Shown here: positions 2,700 to 32,853 of the stretch, in pieces
How the letters are laid out: each line of letters begins with the position of its first letter
How positions within the stretch are numbered: the stretch's first letter is position 1
Assembly (NCBI GenBank): GCA_044369355.1
Contig: JBIPMB010000001.1
Coordinates: 1 to 37,014 of the forward strand
Length of the DNA: 37,014 nucleotides
DNA from: Gammaproteobacteria bacterium
GTDB taxonomy: Bacteria > Pseudomonadota > Gammaproteobacteria > UBA1113
Direction: 5' to 3'
Position numbers and translations under genes: made by a program
Notes under the pieces: generated by a model
Seen by the model: the letters and a program-made list of their open reading frames with translations, nothing else
What the model was told of the DNA's origin: nothing
Databases searched by the model: none

Positions 2700-2930
2700 T
2701 TAACTTTCACAGGATACAATTGCTCCTGTCTTTGTGTTTATGGTTTCTAAATATCTCTTTTCTTTCTTCTCATCCCATAGGCTATTGCTTTTTACCATAG
2801 CATTGAGTATCAATAATAACTTATGCATTGCTGCCGTTACAGCTACCATTTTTGCTTTGCCTGCTGCTAATAACCGTTGATAAAATGCTCTTATATACCC
2901 ATCGCCAATGAAGATGCGAGAACGATGCAC
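2700..2930 (-). pseudogene. IS110/IS1111-family transposase, C-terminal fragment only
   Basis: The translation ...YIRAFYQRLLAAGKAKMVAVTAAMHKLLLILNAMVKSNSLW matches the conserved C-terminal signature of IS110-family transposases as I recall it (FYxRLxxxGKxxKVAxxAxxRKLLxILNAM). The N-terminal catalytic domain is absent. Confidence 0.55.
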
Positions 2931-3086
2931 TATCTCTTATTGAGAGCTCAGAATACTGGCCCAAAGCCATCGTTGCCGTTGTGTCAAACATGCCGTCAAT
3001 ACATCCTTGTAGGCTCGGTCGCGACATCCTGTCGCTCACGGTTTGCCACAACTTTGCAAAGGTGACTTTGAGCCTAAGTTCTGCGG
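2905..3086. repeat. Left arm of long inverted repeat
   Basis: Contains 29-bp (2962..2990) and 47-bp (3013..3059) blocks whose exact reverse complements occur at 4359..4387 and 4290..4336. Confidence 0.85.
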
Positions 3087-3115
3087 TTTTTATCTAGAAA
3101 AGAAGAAAACTCTAT

Positions 3116-3143
3116 TTGACAAAATGGCAAAGATTGTTAATAC
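3116..3143 (+). promoter_or_regulatory. Sigma70-like promoter upstream of the IS630 transposase
   Basis: TTGACA, 16-nt spacer, TAATAC, about 40 nt upstream of the ATG at 3183. Motif match only. Confidence 0.35.
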
Positions 3144-3182
3144 CCTATTGCAAAGCTGAAATAGATGTGATCAAATAAGGAT

Positions 3183-4211
3183 ATGAACCAAAAACTTAGC
3201 AAAAAAGAACGTGAAAATTTGTTGCAATCGCATCGTCAAGAGCGAGATAAGCGCGTGTGCGACCGAATAAAAGCAGTGCTAGCGTATGATGATGGTTACA
3301 GTTATGCAGAAATTGCAAAAATTCTCCTGTTAGATGACGAAACGATACGCCGTCATGTAGAAGATTATTTCTGTAAGGTGAAGCTAAAGCCGGAGAATGG
3401 AGGCAGCAGTAGTCATTTAAGCGTAAAGGAAAGCTTGTGGGTGAAAGCTCATCTAGAAGAAAATACTTATTTGTACGTTAAAGATATTTGTGCTTATGTA
3501 AAAGATAGATTTAACAAAAGATATAGTATAAGTGGTATGACAAAATGGCTGCATCAGCAAGGGTTTTGTTACAAGAAGCCCCACGGTGTACCGGCAAAAG
3601 CGGACAAGAAAGAGCAGGAAAAGTTTATAAAACGATATGCGCAATTAATAGATAAAACCCGAGGAAAAGAGCCTATTTACTTCGTAGACAGCGTGCATCC
3701 ACATCATCAAACAAGACTGACTTATGGATGGATATTAAAGGGAGTACGCAAAGATATTGCAATGACGGGTAGACAATATAAAGTCAACATCATTGGTGGA
3801 ATAAATCTAGATGGGCACAAACTAATATACAATCCAGTAGATAAAGTAGATGGTGAAGCGATCGGGGGATTTTTATTAGACTTGCGCAAACGGCATCCTG
3901 AAAAATGTAAGCTTCACATTATTTGGGATAACGCAGGATACCATCGGGATAAAGAAATAATAGAGCTAGCAAAGAAGTTAGCTATTGAATTACATTATTT
4001 ACCGCCGTATTCGCCGAACCTTAATCCTATAGAGCGCTTATGGAAGATAATGCATGAATGGGTAACTAATAATAGATATTATGAAACATTTTTAGAGTTT
4101 AGCGAAGCCATCATGAATTTTTTTAAGCTGATAGGCAGACATAAGAATATTTTACGGGCACGAATCACTGATAATTTTAGAGCGATACAATCACCGTTAT
4201 TCTCGCCTTAA
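3183..4211 (+). CDS. IS630/Tc1-mariner-family DDE transposase, apparently intact (342 aa)
   Basis: It has an N-terminal HTH region (YSYAEIAKILLLDDETIRRHV). The DDE signature reads YFVDSVHP ... IIWDNAGYHR ... LPPYSPNLNPIERLW, and PYSPxLNPIE is the classic IS630 motif. Confidence 0.9.
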   Translation: MNQKLSKKERENLLQSHRQERDKRVCDRIKAVLAYDDGYSYAEIAKILLLDDETIRRHVEDYFCKVKLKPENGGSSSHLSVKESLWVKAHLEENTYLYVKDICAYVKDRFNKRYSISGMTKWLHQQGFCYKKPHGVPAKADKKEQEKFIKRYAQLIDKTRGKEPIYFVDSVHPHHQTRLTYGWILKGVRKDIAMTGRQYKVNIIGGINLDGHKLIYNPVDKVDGEAIGGFLLDLRKRHPEKCKLHIIWDNAGYHRDKEIIELAKKLAIELHYLPPYSPNLNPIERLWKIMHEWVTNNRYYETFLEFSEAIMNFFKLIGRHKNILRARITDNFRAIQSPLFSP

Positions 4212-4262
4212 GAAAATAAGATAAGTATTTTAATGGGATTTTCTACATTTTCATGTAACGAA

Positions 4263-4429
4263 GCGCGGAACTTAAGTTCAAAGCCATCGTTGCAAAGTTG
4301 TGGCAAACCGTGAGCGACAGGATGTCGCGACCGAGCCCCCATGGATGGGTTTACGGCGTGTTTGACACAACGGCAACGATGGCTTTGAACGAGTAACCTG
4401 TGAGTTTGAGAATCTCGCATCTTGAAGTG
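4263..4429. repeat. Right arm of long inverted repeat; itself a long hairpin
   Basis: It is the reverse complement of the left arm. Internally, 4279..4293 CAAAGCCATCGTTGC pairs perfectly with 4373..4387 GCAACGATGGCTTTG. Confidence 0.85.
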
Positions 4430-4942
4430 GAATGGGTAAAGAAGGGAGTTTCTTTAAAAAAATTAAAGAAGACAGTCAAAGAGCTACTTTCAATAACCGG
4501 GGGGTCTTCATTATCTGTAGCAGCAACTGTGCCATAATGACTATCTGGTTTGTCATTCAGTAAGGAAATATTTGTAACGCTGTTTTCTTCTGGAGGTTGG
4601 CTCTCAAAATCAGTTTGTATTTGCATGGCATCTTCATAAGTTATACGCATTTTTTTAAAAGCCTATTTTGATTTCTCAATAGCAACATTATACCATTATC
4701 ATGAATATGTTCTCTTGCGAAAAGGGCCTTTATGTGAATAAACTATTATCCTTTCTGATGATGTACGCATTATAATGGTGAGGGGTAAACGCAATTAAAT
4801 TTGTTTTGAGGTTAAAATTCCAAAAAATATTGATGTACATTATAAAAAGAAAGGGAATATGCATTGAAAATTGAAATAGATGATAACTATAGCTATTATA
4901 TCTGAGGATGTAGTCGTATCAAGAGGATATTGTGTTTCAGAA

Positions 4943-5382: not shown

Positions 5383-5513
5383 TATACTCTTCGCATTTGA
5401 CCTTTAGGCTTTGTTGCCTTCGCCCATCTCGCATCCAGTATATGACATAAGTACGTCAATCCTTTTGCTCGAGAGCTAGGCGCCTCGCCTAAAAATCAAC
5501 TGCTGTGAGTAAG
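5383..5513. repeat. 131-bp MITE-like dispersed element, copy A (trmD/rplS junction)
   Basis: About 115/131 positions are identical to 9596..9726 by manual alignment, in the same orientation. The terminal inverted repeats are imperfect (~27 bp). Confidence 0.85.
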
Positions 5514-20293: not shown

Positions 20294-21466
20294 CTAATCT
20301 ACCACTGCCTGCTGAAAACAACGTAATGCTTCTTCTTTGTCGCCTAATTGTAAGGATAATGCGCCTAATACCGCGTAGGTTTTCGGCAAAGGGCGCACTT
20401 GTAAGCTATGGGTTAAATAACTGCTGGCTTGCGATAACGCGCCGTCGGCCATAGCCAGTTGCCCTAAGCACAATAAAATATGCGGTTCCTGGCCTTGTTG
20501 TTTCAATAAAGACAAAGCAAAATCGATTTGTTTATTGAGGCGTTGGCTGTGAATTTGACCGTAGAGTGCAATTAGCTCCGGATCAAACTGTGCTTTTAAA
20601 GTATCGCGTACCAATTCTTCAGCCAGATCGGGCATATGGCTGTCCAATAAAAAATGAGCGCAGGGCAAGACCCATTCTTTACGGCGTTGTAAAGGCTTAG
20701 GTAATTTTTGCCAGTAGAGTTCAATCTTTTGTTGATCTCCTTGTTTTAATTGCAACAATAATAATTCTAAATACGCTTTTTCGCTTAACTGCTGCAGCTG
20801 CGCGCTATCTATTATTTTTTGTTTTTTCAATAAGGGTAATAGATCTAATAGATGAGACCAATCAGCCAAGCGATAATAAACTTGTTTGAGTAGCTTTAAC
20901 ATATATTTATGTTGCGGTGCTTCTTGCTGAACATGGCGCAAGGTGGCTAGACAATGCTCCCATTGTTCATCGTGATATTGCAATTCAGCTTGCGTTAAGC
21001 CCACAGCAATTTTAGCCCCGGGGGTGGAATCCAGCGCGTAATGTAAGTATTGATCGCGTCTGTCATAAGCTTCTAAGGCTTGCGCCGCTTTAGCTGCTGC
21101 TAAATAATTGACTAAAGGTATTTCATTGAACTTTACCGATTTTATCAACAAACTTTCTGCCTTATCCCAATCGCCTTCGGCCAATGCCAATAAGCCTTGC
21201 AAGGTATGACGATGACTGCTTTCATAACGGTGTTCATGGCGCCATTTTTTAAAAACACGTAATATTAAACCAGGGCCATTTAACAAACGCAGTAAAATAT
21301 ATAAAGCAATGAAGGCCGCGATAACGGCAGTAATGCCAAACCACAACGGCATTTCAATAGACCAATGCCCGTAGGTGATGGCCATATAGCCGGGTGCGGC
21401 GCTGAGCATCAACGCGCTCCAGGCTAGGAATAAAACGATAACTATAGAGCTTAACCAACGTAACAT
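20294..21466 (-). CDS. hemY: HemY-type heme-biosynthesis-associated TPR membrane protein
   Basis: It has two N-terminal TM segments followed by TPR-like repeats, and follows hemD and hemX. Confidence 0.85.
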   Translation of the reverse strand: MLRWLSSIVIVLFLAWSALMLSAAPGYMAITYGHWSIEMPLWFGITAVIAAFIALYILLRLLNGPGLILRVFKKWRHEHRYESSHRHTLQGLLALAEGDWDKAESLLIKSVKFNEIPLVNYLAAAKAAQALEAYDRRDQYLHYALDSTPGAKIAVGLTQAELQYHDEQWEHCLATLRHVQQEAPQHKYMLKLLKQVYYRLADWSHLLDLLPLLKKQKIIDSAQLQQLSEKAYLELLLLQLKQGDQQKIELYWQKLPKPLQRRKEWVLPCAHFLLDSHMPDLAEELVRDTLKAQFDPELIALYGQIHSQRLNKQIDFALSLLKQQGQEPHILLCLGQLAMADGALSQASSYLTHSLQVRPLPKTYAVLGALSLQLGDKEEALRCFQQAVVD

Positions 21467-21481
21467 GAAATACTTCCTTTT

Positions 21482-22483
21482 TTATTTGCCATTGCTGAGC
21501 AACGCTTGCTGAATGCGATTGATGAGCGGCGATAACTCAGGGAAATTGGGCTGCAAATTAGTATTTTCTAATAGTTTTAATTGTTGCAGAATGTTTTGTG
21601 CCGTAGCATTATTGGTATCGTAATGTGCATGTAACCAGCGCTCAGCATCTTGAATGCTACTTTGAAACAATGCTGTGTTGTGTGCTATGGCTGCCCATTG
21701 TGCTTGAGCTAGGTATAAGGACAGACGAGCATTGAGATAAGCGCGTTCATCGGGAGTAATAAAATGTGGGGCTTCGGCGCCATAATGTTTGACCGTAATA
21801 ACTTTTTGTAACCCTTGCCAGGCATTATTCCCTAATTTATTCCAAAAAGAACGCTGTGTATCTTGTGTTTTAGCATTATCTTTAGGTTCAGTTTGTGTTA
21901 AAGGTAAAGCATTAATGGTGTCTTGCACTGCTGATAATTGGCTGACAATTTTCGCAATGTTTAATGCCGGCACGGTCTTTAAGGTAGCCAGCGTTTGTTG
22001 CAATGAACCGTCTAAGGCTTGTAATTCGGCATCCGTACTTTGTGTGAGCTCATTGTGCGCTGCTTGTAAATAAATAGAAGCTTTGTTGGCATCAAATTGA
22101 TATAATAGTGCATCTTGTGCCAATTGCGCTAGATAGAGTACGTGCGCTAAGGGCAGGGCAGATAATTGTGCGTGTAACGTAGTCACTTGGGTTTGTAATT
22201 GTGTCAAGGCTTGCTGATTATTTTTATTGTCAGCTGTTAAATTTTGTATAGTTCCATTTAGAGCTGTGATGGATTTTTTATTTTGTTTTAGAGTATGTTG
22301 CATACCCGATAGTTCTTGTGCGCTGGCAGAGAAAGAAGCTTGCCAGGCACTGGCGTGATAGTAAAAATAAATGGCCACACTAAGAGATAAGCCTAGCGCA
22401 ATCAATCCTACGAGCAGCGTGAGCCATATCCAGGGGGCGGTGCGTTTGTTTGCAATGGGAGTTGTTGCGGGTGTATCAGTCAT
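21482..22483 (-). CDS. hemX: HemX-type membrane protein (uroporphyrinogen-III methyltransferase-like)
   Basis: It has a single N-terminal TM segment and a Gln/Leu/Ala-rich coiled region, and sits in the hemD-hemX-hemY order. Confidence 0.8.
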   Translation of the reverse strand: MTDTPATTPIANKRTAPWIWLTLLVGLIALGLSLSVAIYFYYHASAWQASFSASAQELSGMQHTLKQNKKSITALNGTIQNLTADNKNNQQALTQLQTQVTTLHAQLSALPLAHVLYLAQLAQDALLYQFDANKASIYLQAAHNELTQSTDAELQALDGSLQQTLATLKTVPALNIAKIVSQLSAVQDTINALPLTQTEPKDNAKTQDTQRSFWNKLGNNAWQGLQKVITVKHYGAEAPHFITPDERAYLNARLSLYLAQAQWAAIAHNTALFQSSIQDAERWLHAHYDTNNATAQNILQQLKLLENTNLQPNFPELSPLINRIQQALLSNGK

Positions 22484-22510
22484 AAAATCTCATCCTAATT
22501 AATCATTCAA

Positions 22511-22635
22511 CATACTCTTCGGCCAATGAAGATGCGAGAATGTGCGTAGGGGCAGGCCTCCGTGCCTGTCCTAAAGGGGCAACCACAGGGGGTTGCCCCT
22601 ACGCACCGAGCCGCATCTTGAAGTGCTTGAGTATG
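22511..22635. mobile_element. 125-bp palindromic MITE-like element at the hemD/hemX junction
   Basis: Its ends CATACTCTTCGGCCAATGAAGATGCGAGA and CGCATCTTGAAGTGCTTGAGTATG match the ends of the 2894..4440 element. The internal inverted repeat GTGCGTAGGGGCA / TGCCCCTACGCAC is 13 bp and perfect. Confidence 0.75.
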
Positions 22636-23372
22636 GCCTCGTCGCTGGCGTTATCTGCCACAGTAATGCTTCCTTTATGGCCCAATTTGCGCGCTAATGA
22701 GCACATTTTATCACTAATGAGCAAGAGATGACAGTCGCGCCAATCGGGTTTGTTCATTGGTTGTGCAAAATGTAATAAAAGCGCTAAATTTTGCAACCCC
22801 TCACTACTGGTGACGATGAATAAGCTGCTTTTGGGAGTATGTATCTGTTTTTCTAAGTCTAGGGAGGGCGTAGGGCAGTGACGTTCATAGCAATCAAAAA
22901 TTGTAACTATGGCGCCTTGTTGTTGTAAACTGGGCGCTAATAAGCCGCGGCCGCCTTTACCCTTAAAAATAGCGATTTTTTGTCCTTTTACATTTTTTAA
23001 AACTGCCAAATTCAATAAACCCTCGCTGGAATACTCTTTTTCGGGTGTGATTATATTATGAAAGCCATAGTGTATCAGCGCTTTTGCCGTTCCAGGGCCT
23101 TGCGCGACGAATTGTGTAGTAGGCCAAATTTTTGGACTTAATGCACATAATTTCATGGCGTGATGCACGGCGGTAGGGCTGACAAACAAGGCGCTATTAA
23201 AAAGTGTATTTCTAAAATTGTGAAAATAAGGGATCACGTCAGAATTTTCTGCAATTTCTAATGTAGGAAAGAGTAAGGGTTGAAAGCCCAATGTTTGTAA
23301 ACGCTGTAGCAACGATGAGGCCGTGGTAATAGGTTTAGTAATGACTATATGTTCGATGTGATTGACATTCAT
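22599..23372 (-). CDS. hemD: Uroporphyrinogen-III synthase
   Basis: Its size and position upstream of hemX-hemY fit HemD, and the fold pattern is HemD-like. The last 11 codons and the stop lie inside the 125-bp element. Confidence 0.85.
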   Translation of the reverse strand: MNVNHIEHIVITKPITTASSLLQRLQTLGFQPLLFPTLEIAENSDVIPYFHNFRNTLFNSALFVSPTAVHHAMKLCALSPKIWPTTQFVAQGPGTAKALIHYGFHNIITPEKEYSSEGLLNLAVLKNVKGQKIAIFKGKGGRGLLAPSLQQQGAIVTIFDCYERHCPTPSLDLEKQIHTPKSSLFIVTSSEGLQNLALLLHFAQPMNKPDWRDCHLLLISDKMCSLARKLGHKGSITVADNASDEAILKHFKMRLGA

Positions 23373-23561: not shown

Positions 23562-24161
23562 ATGCCAAAGAAAGCAACGAAGCATGCCGCTCATAGTGGT
23601 ATTCACAGTTTGCAAAGCGAATGCAAAGCTATTTTGCAAAAATTAACTGCAGCGCATCAAGATTGGGTGAAAAGCACCGAGAAAGCGGCTGCTAAAATCA
23701 AAGCACAATGGGCCAAAGCGGATCAAATAGTGAAAAAAGCTAAAGCTCAAAAGGCAGCTCTCAAGGGTAAAGGCGCTGGTAAAAAAACGGCTACGCACAA
23801 AAAGCAAGCCGATAAAGTAACAATGGCTTTTGTTCAAGCTAAAACCTTAGCACAAAGCTTAAAGAAAGAATTATCTGCTGTATTGCCAGAATTGAAGACA
23901 GCAAAAGCGGCATTAAAACGCCATATAGCAGTAGAAAAAGTGGCAGCTAAAAAAATAGTTGCAGCTAAAGTCAAAGCAGCTCCAGCTAAGGCCAAGAAAG
24001 CAGCCCCAGCTAAGGCCAAGAAAGCAGCTCCAGCTAAGGCCAAGAAAGCAGCTCCAGCTAAGGCCAAGAAAGCAGCTCCAGCTAAGGCCAAGAAAGCTGC
24101 AGGCAAAAGCACACGTGGCCATAAGGCAAAGCCGGTAGTGGTGGCTGCGGAACAAGCCTAG
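23562..24161 (+). CDS. Lys/Ala-rich histone-H1-like / AlgP-like basic protein (199 aa)
   Basis: The whole sequence is Lys/Ala-rich and the C-terminus carries (AAPAKAKK)x5. A GGAGAAG RBS is present. Confidence 0.8.
   Translation: MPKKATKHAAHSGIHSLQSECKAILQKLTAAHQDWVKSTEKAAAKIKAQWAKADQIVKKAKAQKAALKGKGAGKKTATHKKQADKVTMAFVQAKTLAQSLKKELSAVLPELKTAKAALKRHIAVEKVAAKKIVAAKVKAAPAKAKKAAPAKAKKAAPAKAKKAAPAKAKKAAPAKAKKAAGKSTRGHKAKPVVVAAEQA
23977..24096 (+). repeat. Five tandem 24-bp coding repeats
   Basis: GCAGCTCCAGCTAAGGCCAAGAAA is repeated five times with a single substitution, in unit 2. Confidence 0.95.
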
Positions 24162-24173
24162 AGATTGTCAGTT

Positions 24174-24290
24174 CGCTTGTAGGGGCGGCTCGCGAGCCGC
24201 CCAGAATCAACGCGTATGACCATGGATTTGCGTGTAGTCATTGTCATGTGCTGTGTTAGCAGGGCGCCTCGCGAGGCGCCCCTACAAGCG
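24174..24290. repeat. 117-bp element bounded by inverted GTAGGGGC-type hairpin units
   Basis: CGCTTGTAGGGGCGGCTCGCGAGCCGCCC sits at the left and its near-exact reverse complement at the right. Each end contains a perfect GC palindrome. Confidence 0.8.
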
Positions 24291-24307
24291 AGCACCCGTT
24301 TACATCC

Positions 24308-24333
24308 CCTAAGAATCAAATGCGAAGAGTATA
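24308..24333. repeat. 26-bp fragment identical to the left terminus of the 131-bp element (inverted)
   Basis: CCTAAGAATCAAATGCGAAGAGTATA is the exact reverse complement of 9596..9621. Confidence 0.8.
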
Positions 24334-24334
24334 C

Positions 24335-27677: not shown

Positions 27678-27705
27678 TGTTGTAGGGGCGGCTCGCGAGC
27701 CGCCC
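27678..27705. repeat. GTAGGGGC-type REP-like hairpin between convergent genes
   Basis: TTGTAGGGGCGGCTCGCGAGCCGCCC is identical over 26 nt to 24177..24202. It contains the 20-nt perfect palindrome GGGCGGCTCGCGAGCCGCCC. Confidence 0.8.
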
Positions 27706-32770: not shown

Positions 32771-32810
32771 CGTAGGGGCAGGCCCCTGTGCCTGCTCAAT
32801 AGGGTAAGCA
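32771..32810. repeat. GTAGGGGC-type REP-like half element (plsX/fabH spacer)
   Basis: CGTAGGGGCAGGCCCCTGTGCCTGCTCAATAGGG closely resembles 22545..22578 (CGTAGGGGCAGGCCTCCGTGCCTGTCCTAAAGGG). Confidence 0.55.
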
Positions 32811-32853
32811 CAGGCTGTTTCTGTGCACTGACGCATCCCGTGAGGAGTAAATA

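Follow-up and report, generated by a model that had tools for sequence, protein, structure and literature searches.

Small palindromic repeats that recode proteins or put hairpins into polycistronic mRNAs are known, such as the Rickettsia palindromic elements (RPEs) and the Correia/ERIC-type MITEs. IS630-related bacterial MITEs have been described as well, including the repeat unit of pneumococcus (RUP), for which mobilisation in trans was proposed (PMC3049150). A further class comprises the GTAG REPs, in which it is common for a GTAG head to supply the TAG stop of a flanking open reading frame (PMC3733652, a work that also mentions the RPEs). We follow the published naming and use head-to-head heterodimer of GTAG REPs (Di Nocera et al. 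2013, PMC3733652) and REPIN (Bertels and Rainey 2011, PMC3116915) for the core of the element reported here. IS630-related MITEs, GTAG REP dimers that donate stops or are enclosed in palindromes, and protein-recoding palindromes are all established already, and the element located at the junction between hemD and hemX adds one well-resolved member.

We analyzed a stretch of 37,014 nt of gammaproteobacterial DNA (hereafter the window), whose features are collected in Table 1 together with loci (L numbers) and proteins (P numbers) used for comparison. Like RUP and other IS630-related MITEs (PMC3049150), the hemD/hemX element falls in the range of ~100-130 bp, has no ORF, carries terminal repeats resembling an IS630-family IS of the same genome, forms a strong RNA hairpin and is located at gene ends. 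Unlike RUP, with which it shares no sequence similarity, it has a GC-rich REP dimer as interior instead of AT-rich filler, is seen in one copy, and is flanked by CA/TG without a readable TA duplication. With GTAG REPs and REPINs (PMC3733652, PMC3116915) the core shares a GTAG head with a GC-rich imperfect palindrome, arranged as an inverted pair with heads outward and a short spacer, and, as in GTAG REP dimers (PMC3733652), the units differ in stem sequence and a GTAG head gives a TAG stop. Some GTAG REP dimer families also lie inside a longer palindrome (PMC3733652), but here the enclosing palindrome can be recognised as a pair of IS630-type terminal repeats. REPIN populations in the literature are described as specific to a lineage, unlike the hemD/hemX dimer, whose sequence is found in many phyla. 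The element resembles RPEs and Correia/ERIC-type elements in being a small palindromic repeat that inserts in or at the ends of coding regions, without any sequence relationship to them; RPE insertions keep the frame and are read through, whereas the hemD/hemX element ends the ORF after 10 codons.

Table 1. Coordinates of the hemD/hemX element, of the surrounding genes and of related sequences (window positions unless a locus is named).
Feature	Position	Strand	Remarks
Insertion sequence, IS630 family, ~1.54 kb	2896-4438	+	Candidate autonomous partner
Transposase ORF of the IS	3183-4211		NCBIfam NF033545, 204.9 bits (cut-off 100); Pfam DDE_3 and HTH_33
MITE of second family (B), 127 bp	5385-5511, 9598-9724; L004 251-378		TACTCTTCGCATTTGAyyyTTAGGC...GCCTAAAAATCAACTGCTrTGAGTA
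Lone end of a family B MITE	24308-24334		
hemY	20294-21466	-	Pfam HemY_N
hemX	21482-22483	-	Pfam HemX
Relic of the ancestral hemD 3' end	22484-22510	-	Homologous to ...IESLLRIVL and stop; alignment to L159, L126, L124, L002, L004
hemD (uroporphyrinogen-III synthase), 257 aa	22599-23372	-	Pfam HEM4
hemD stop codon TAG	22599-22601	-	TAG of the GTAG head of REP unit B
Whole element, limits of the earlier note	22511-22635		DNA inserted relative to empty sites: 22511-22633 (123 nt)
Element body, TACTC...GAGTA	22513-22633		
Left terminal repeat, TACTCTTCGGCCAATGAAGATGCGAGAAT	22513-22541	+	Matches left end of the IS630-family IS, 2896-2923
REP head-to-head heterodimer core (REPIN-like)	22542-22606		13-bp outer stem 22542-22554/22594-22606
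REP unit A, GTAGGGGCAGGCCTCCGTGCCTGTCC	22546-22571	+	
REP unit B, GTAGGGGCAACCCCCTGTGGTTGCCCC	22576-22602	-	
Right terminal repeat, ...CGAGCCGCATCTTGAAGTGCTTGAGTA	22607-22633	+	Matches right end of the IS, 4411-4438
Decayed second copy of the REP dimer, no terminal repeats	32771-32830	+	plsX/fabH junction
REP heterodimer, loci besides the window	L018, L019, L024, L025, L029, L031, L034, L036, L066, L067, L076, L085, L087, L088, L103, L108, L114, L115		

The interval between hemD and hemX had been described in an earlier note as a single palindromic unit. All of the palindromes listed there were recovered, namely an outer 7-bp inverted repeat CATACTC/GAGTATG (22511-22517 and 22629-22635), the perfect 13-bp inverted repeat GTGCGTAGGGGCA/TGCCCCTACGCAC that forms the outer stem of the core, and further hairpins within the latter, of which two were found; the description as one unit did not hold, the element being a composite of IS630-type terminal repeats around a GTAG-REP dimer. 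The terminal arms read TACTC...AAGATGCG and the termini can also be written TACTCTTCGGCCAATGAAGATGCGAGAA...CGCATCTTGAAGTGCTTGAGTA. Between them, REP units A and B lie in inverted orientation with their GTAG heads outward, each with a GC-rich imperfect palindrome, separated by a 4-nt spacer, and an inner hairpin inside the 13-bp repeat has a perfect 10-bp stem (22575-22584/22591-22600). The sequence GTAGGGGC has 7 occurrences in the window against 0.55 expected, and a search for the 13-bp inverted repeat allowing up to 2 mismatches gave 3 matches against 0.41 expected. Folding of the transcribed strand yielded -70.3 kcal/mol (z = -4.7; none of 200 shuffles was equally stable), and the 65-nt core alone (22542-22606, dimer plus 13-bp outer stem) yielded -42.8 kcal/mol (z = -6.3); the base of the mRNA hairpin begins at the hemD stop codon. 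At 121-125 bp the element has no transposase ORF, and its long open frames are REP-derived read-throughs only. A 63-aa ORF (MCVGAGLRACPKGATTGGCPY..., 22540-22731, plus strand) results from reading through the REP dimer along the non-coding strand and would be a spurious gene call.

The IS630-family IS whose ends resemble those of the element is located 18 kb away in the same window, and independent copies of it with other flanks were found in L156 and L162. Aligned left to left, element and IS agree in 25 of 29 columns, including an exact run of 19 nt (22523-22541 = 2904-2922) for which the chance expectation is ~3e-7 in 37 kb; aligned right to right, they agree in 21 of 30 columns with an exact run of 14 nt (22612-22625 = 4416-4429). 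Pairing element ends with the opposite IS ends was poorer (21/30 and 18/30, the latter for the right end of the element against the left end of the IS). MITEs typically show just such an end-by-end likeness to an autonomous IS of their genome. Within the IS, we also observed 153-nt subterminal inverted repeats (2949-3101 and 4248-4400) that are 84% complementary, each with a perfect 18-bp hairpin; the IS copy of L162, 90% identical, lacks the left repeat, which therefore looks like a further palindromic insert nested in the IS. At L156 3194-3323, a right IS end abuts a left end across TATA (GGGTA-TA-TACCC), which points to either a tandem IS or the assembly of a circle junction.

To define what was inserted, nine orthologous hemD loci were compared at the DNA level. 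Three of them (L126, L127 and L159, with 77-78% hemD DNA identity) have no spacer, and their hemD overlaps hemX by 4-8 nt. Their junctions read GAGGCCA/TTGAATCACTACTGAGGATTGTTTTATGA (L126 and L127) and GAGGCTA/TCGAATCATTAATTAGGGTACTGCTTTATGACTGA (L159), against GAGGCCA(TACTC...GAGTATG)TTGAATGATTAATTAGGATGAGATTTTATGACTGA in the window, where 22511-22633 is inserted and the sequence 3' of the element aligns to the hemD tail and hemX start of the empty sites. IS630/Tc1-type elements require a TA target, and in L159 a TA (GC/TA/TC) stands precisely where the insertion would fall. The element body starts with TA and ends with TA; dinucleotides 22511-22512 and 22634-22635 occupy the positions expected for a TA target duplication, the flanks now reading CA/TG in the window and TA/CG in L002 and L004, and a clean TA target duplication is not visible at the element flanks in these three loci. 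The CA...TG of the outer CATACTC/GAGTATG, which had been counted as part of the element, is probably host or target-duplication sequence, although the repeat itself is present. We also considered this outer repeat as a purely native flank, as ATACTC and GAGTAYG occur in L002 and L004 too, and rejected this: those loci hold related MITEs, and the empty sites of L126 and L159 lack both motifs.

The earlier note had further stated that the hemD frame extends 37 nt into the interval, which was borne out (the ORF ends ...DEAILKHFKMRLGA and stop inside the element), and that the last 11 residues and the stop are encoded by the element. The stop is indeed the TAG of a REP head; since the insertion measures 123 nt against the empty sites, the isoleucine codon is a host/element hybrid (ATT/ATC to A+TA, the Ile being kept) and 10 residues rather than 11 are new (LKHFKMRLGA). 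Nine of these 10 come from the right terminal repeat, whose minus strand codes for L-K-H-F-K-M-R-L-G. Comparison with HemD orthologues showed conservation through ...NASDEAI(L) and divergence after it, and relatives without the repeat do not share the 11 C-terminal residues, ending instead in ...AIESLLRIVL (L126 and L127, P0007) or ...AIESLIRVLLYD (L159, P0008) before the stop. From ancestral tails of the form (I)ESLLRIVL or (I)ESLIRVLLYD, 8-10 residues were cut off, and the coding sequence of such a tail is recognisable in the window directly downstream of the element, out of use; this relic is untranslated today, contains an in-frame TGA and still holds the hemX Shine-Dalgarno AGGA. Because the tails at empty sites differ and the relic survives downstream, the sequence comparison shows that the element did replace the HemD C-terminus. 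The insertion point coincides with the end of the Pfam HEM4 match (residue 247), and some orthologues (P0057) stop just ~4 residues past it, which makes this a permissive position; the insertion may have been tolerated because the replaced tail would lie beyond the conserved fold. For the operon, the consequence is that the ancestral hemD/hemX overlap seen in empty-site relatives, which would allow translational coupling, has been exchanged for a spacer that places the hemX start 115 nt 3' of the hemD stop. Downstream of the element, hemX and hemY have intact ORFs and a Shine-Dalgarno sequence is present, and the hemX/hemY junction of the window is only 15 nt long and empty.

The history of the site was followed in the other relatives. 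In a neighbor-joining tree of hemD DNA, the window and L003 are sisters (92.1% identity), and L003 carries the orthologous composite element with an earlier TGA, its HemD ending ...ILKHFKM. Different elements are located at the identical junction in L004, L002 and L161 (83-91% hemD DNA identity), with ends TACTCAyAGCGnTTGG..TTTAGGCGA that resemble the second MITE family of the window (family B). In L124, a 12-nt remnant corresponding to the first 12 nt of such an element is fused in frame to the ancestral tail (ILTA+IESHFRITFYD), and in the outgroup L160 (68% hemD DNA identity) the site is filled with another variant at the same TA. The presence of filled, remnant and empty states among relatives makes the site a hotspot of repeated insertion and/or loss. 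Family B itself is represented in the window by two full copies, 89% identical to each other, at the trmD/rplS and parA/parB junctions, with ends related both to those of the hemD element and to those of the IS; fragments of the family occur in L126 and L127. At both junctions its copies encode the C-terminal residues (..THSS) of the upstream gene, trmD or parA, together with its stop, which agrees with the earlier description of hemD as the third case in the window of a small repeat recoding the tail of the upstream gene. With three or more full copies at separate loci, family B shows that miniature derivatives with such ends do move in this lineage.

The best explanation of these observations, to which we assign a probability of about three in four, is a composite non-autonomous element, in which IS630-derived terminal inverted repeats of 27-29 bp (a MITE) enclose a GTAG-REP dimer, inserted in hemD. 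Insertion would have occurred at a TA dinucleotide within the last hemD codons, presumably by the IS630 transposase acting in trans; the REP dimer may have been carried inside the MITE or added later by a REP-associated transposase. By analogy with REP/BIME and intergenic MITE hairpins elsewhere, the hairpin of the element, if active, might act as a barrier to 3'-5' decay or as a processing site and alter the hemD:hemX ratio, and it could possibly also be a brake on termination at the hemD stop. The element with exactly these terminal repeats and this REP core was found in one copy in the 37-kb window, plus its orthologue in L003. Scanning metagenomes for the 18-nt terminal-repeat motif CCAATGAAGATGCGAGAA gave 28 matches, all attributable to chance and none with related context, and when the open frame running across the element was searched against a protein database, no further copies emerged as ORFs or tails. 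With a single copy apart from the L003 orthologue, the unit is regarded as putatively mobile.

Copy number is accordingly the weakest point of the composite reading, and it keeps alive a different account, which we regard as fairly unlikely: a full IS630-family IS in the 3' end of hemD would have lost its interior in situ and received the REP dimer later, so that the 123-nt unit never transposed. The single copy would fit this account, as would the independent existence of the REP dimer without terminal repeats, the fact that related ends at this site enclose different cores in L002 and L004, and the deletions that occur at the site, as shown by L124. It is opposed by the sister family B, with at least three full copies at different loci in addition to the L126 and L127 fragments, and by the outgroup L160, where filling of the same TA with another variant suggests repeated insertion. 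Much less probable is a plain REPIN/BIME insertion moved by a RAYT, in which the likeness to the IS ends would be fortuitous or a matter of target preference. In its favour, the core is a canonical head-to-head dimer of GTAG REPs, and REP dimers within longer palindromes are known from Anabaena variabilis and Halothiobacillus neapolitanus (PMC3733652), but such an insertion leaves unexplained the exact 19-nt match to the IS end (~3e-7 by chance), the 14-nt match at the other end in the correct orientation, and the fact that the DNA inserted relative to empty sites extends beyond the REP dimer to include the terminal repeats.

We consider it highly improbable that the hairpin is a native, selected regulatory signal (attenuator or processing signal) of the hemDXY operon. 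Its stability (z = -4.7) and its position between two genes of one operon would suit such a signal, but L126, L127 and L159 lack it altogether, their overlapping genes meeting at an unstructured junction (z = -0.7), and it is therefore not a conserved native signal. Moreover, close relatives at 91% hemD DNA identity have different sequences at the site, and the same structure with compensatory changes was not seen across the clade. Searching the element against Rfam 15 covariance models gave no match at gathering score, and at permissive thresholds only generic miRNA-precursor hairpin models were hit, with 17.7-25.4 bits against cut-offs of 70-100. A Rho-independent terminator ending hemD transcription can be dismissed, for although a GC-rich stem-loop directly follows the stop codon, no T/U run follows the stem (...GAAGAGTATGTTGAATGATTAATTAGG; direct reading of 22484-22512), the terminator and promoter scan found nothing in the element, including no terminator on the hemD strand (overall counts being at shuffle level), and hemX and hemY follow with intact ORFs and a Shine-Dalgarno sequence.

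The REP dimer was also traced at other loci. Free-standing dimers lacking the terminal repeats in L036, L031, L019, L087 and L034 share ~90% identity with the core over ~60 nt, and among related gammaproteobacterial MAGs dimers without IS-type ends are present in L031 (twice), in L036 (sufS/sufU junction) and in the hemX/hemY spacer of L124. In that spacer (L124 4275-4417), the sequence after the dimer, CAGATCTTGAGGTGTAATAGGTGTATA, is similar to the right IS end. As this spacer is filled in L124 and empty in the window, operon junctions gain or lose such elements independently in the lineage. To survey the motif more widely, we scanned genome contigs (2 x 596 Gb) using a REP pattern with 15 fixed and 2 two-fold positions, for which ~280 matches are expected by chance; most single matches were near chance level, so that the scan is informative for dimers only. 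Among the matches listed, the heterodimer GTAGGGGCAGGCC..GTGCCTGCCC + GGGCAACC..GGTTGCCCCTAC, with heads outward as at 22546-22602 of the window, recurs nearly unchanged, free of the terminal repeats, in at least 19 loci from at least 8 phyla, in MAGs labelled Thermodesulfovibrionales, Phycisphaerae, Pirellulales, Latescibacterota, Deltaproteobacteria, Thermodesulfobacteriota, Chloroflexaceae and Gammaproteobacteria. Since the scan pattern demanded only one of the two units, their pairing is not a selection artefact. A literature search for the REP sequences returned no match except unrelated primers, and no RAYT (Y1 HUH transposase) gene was found among the scanned window ORFs or near the dimers of L031 and L036.

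A second REP class (GTAGGGGCGGCTCGCGAGCCGCCC) was observed in the window as a head-to-head dimer with a 59-nt spacer (24173-24291), directly beside the lone end of a family B MITE, and as a single unit (27680-27705) after a SpoU-methylase gene, as well as in relatives (L004 487-518; L001 and L002 2181-2212). Close by, a 24-nt tandem repeat (23973-24100) encodes five to six AAPAKAKK units of a lysine/alanine-rich, histone-H1-like protein (23562-24161) that is divergent from hemD and has no match in Pfam. At the start of the window, an AcrB-family ORF (77-2398) matches only profile positions 264-1020; the gene encodes 1036 aa in another assembly, so that the ORF as listed is N-terminally short.

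It is conceivable, if rather unlikely, that an IS630 (DDE) MITE has taken up the REP dimer as cargo, so that the dimer can move, and cross species on IS630-bearing DNA, without a RAYT of its own. If true, this would help to explain the nearly unchanged heterodimer in at least 8 phyla, and it would explain the occurrence of REP dimers beside IS630-type ends at three places, namely at hemD/hemX, at 24173-24334 and at the hemX/hemY spacer of L124. The cross-phylum spread of the core heterodimer may be of wider interest. For annotation, the C-terminus of HemD, the spurious 63-aa reading frame of the other strand and contig breaks at the repeat are to be read as artefacts of the element. The locus provides a natural example of a miniature transposon that rewrites the end of an enzyme of an essential pathway and uncouples two overlapping operon genes, with the unoccupied site, the disused ancestral tail, a remnant left by deletion and several other fillings all preserved among relatives, and it offers a test case for whether REP/MITE hairpins inside operons shift relative expression.
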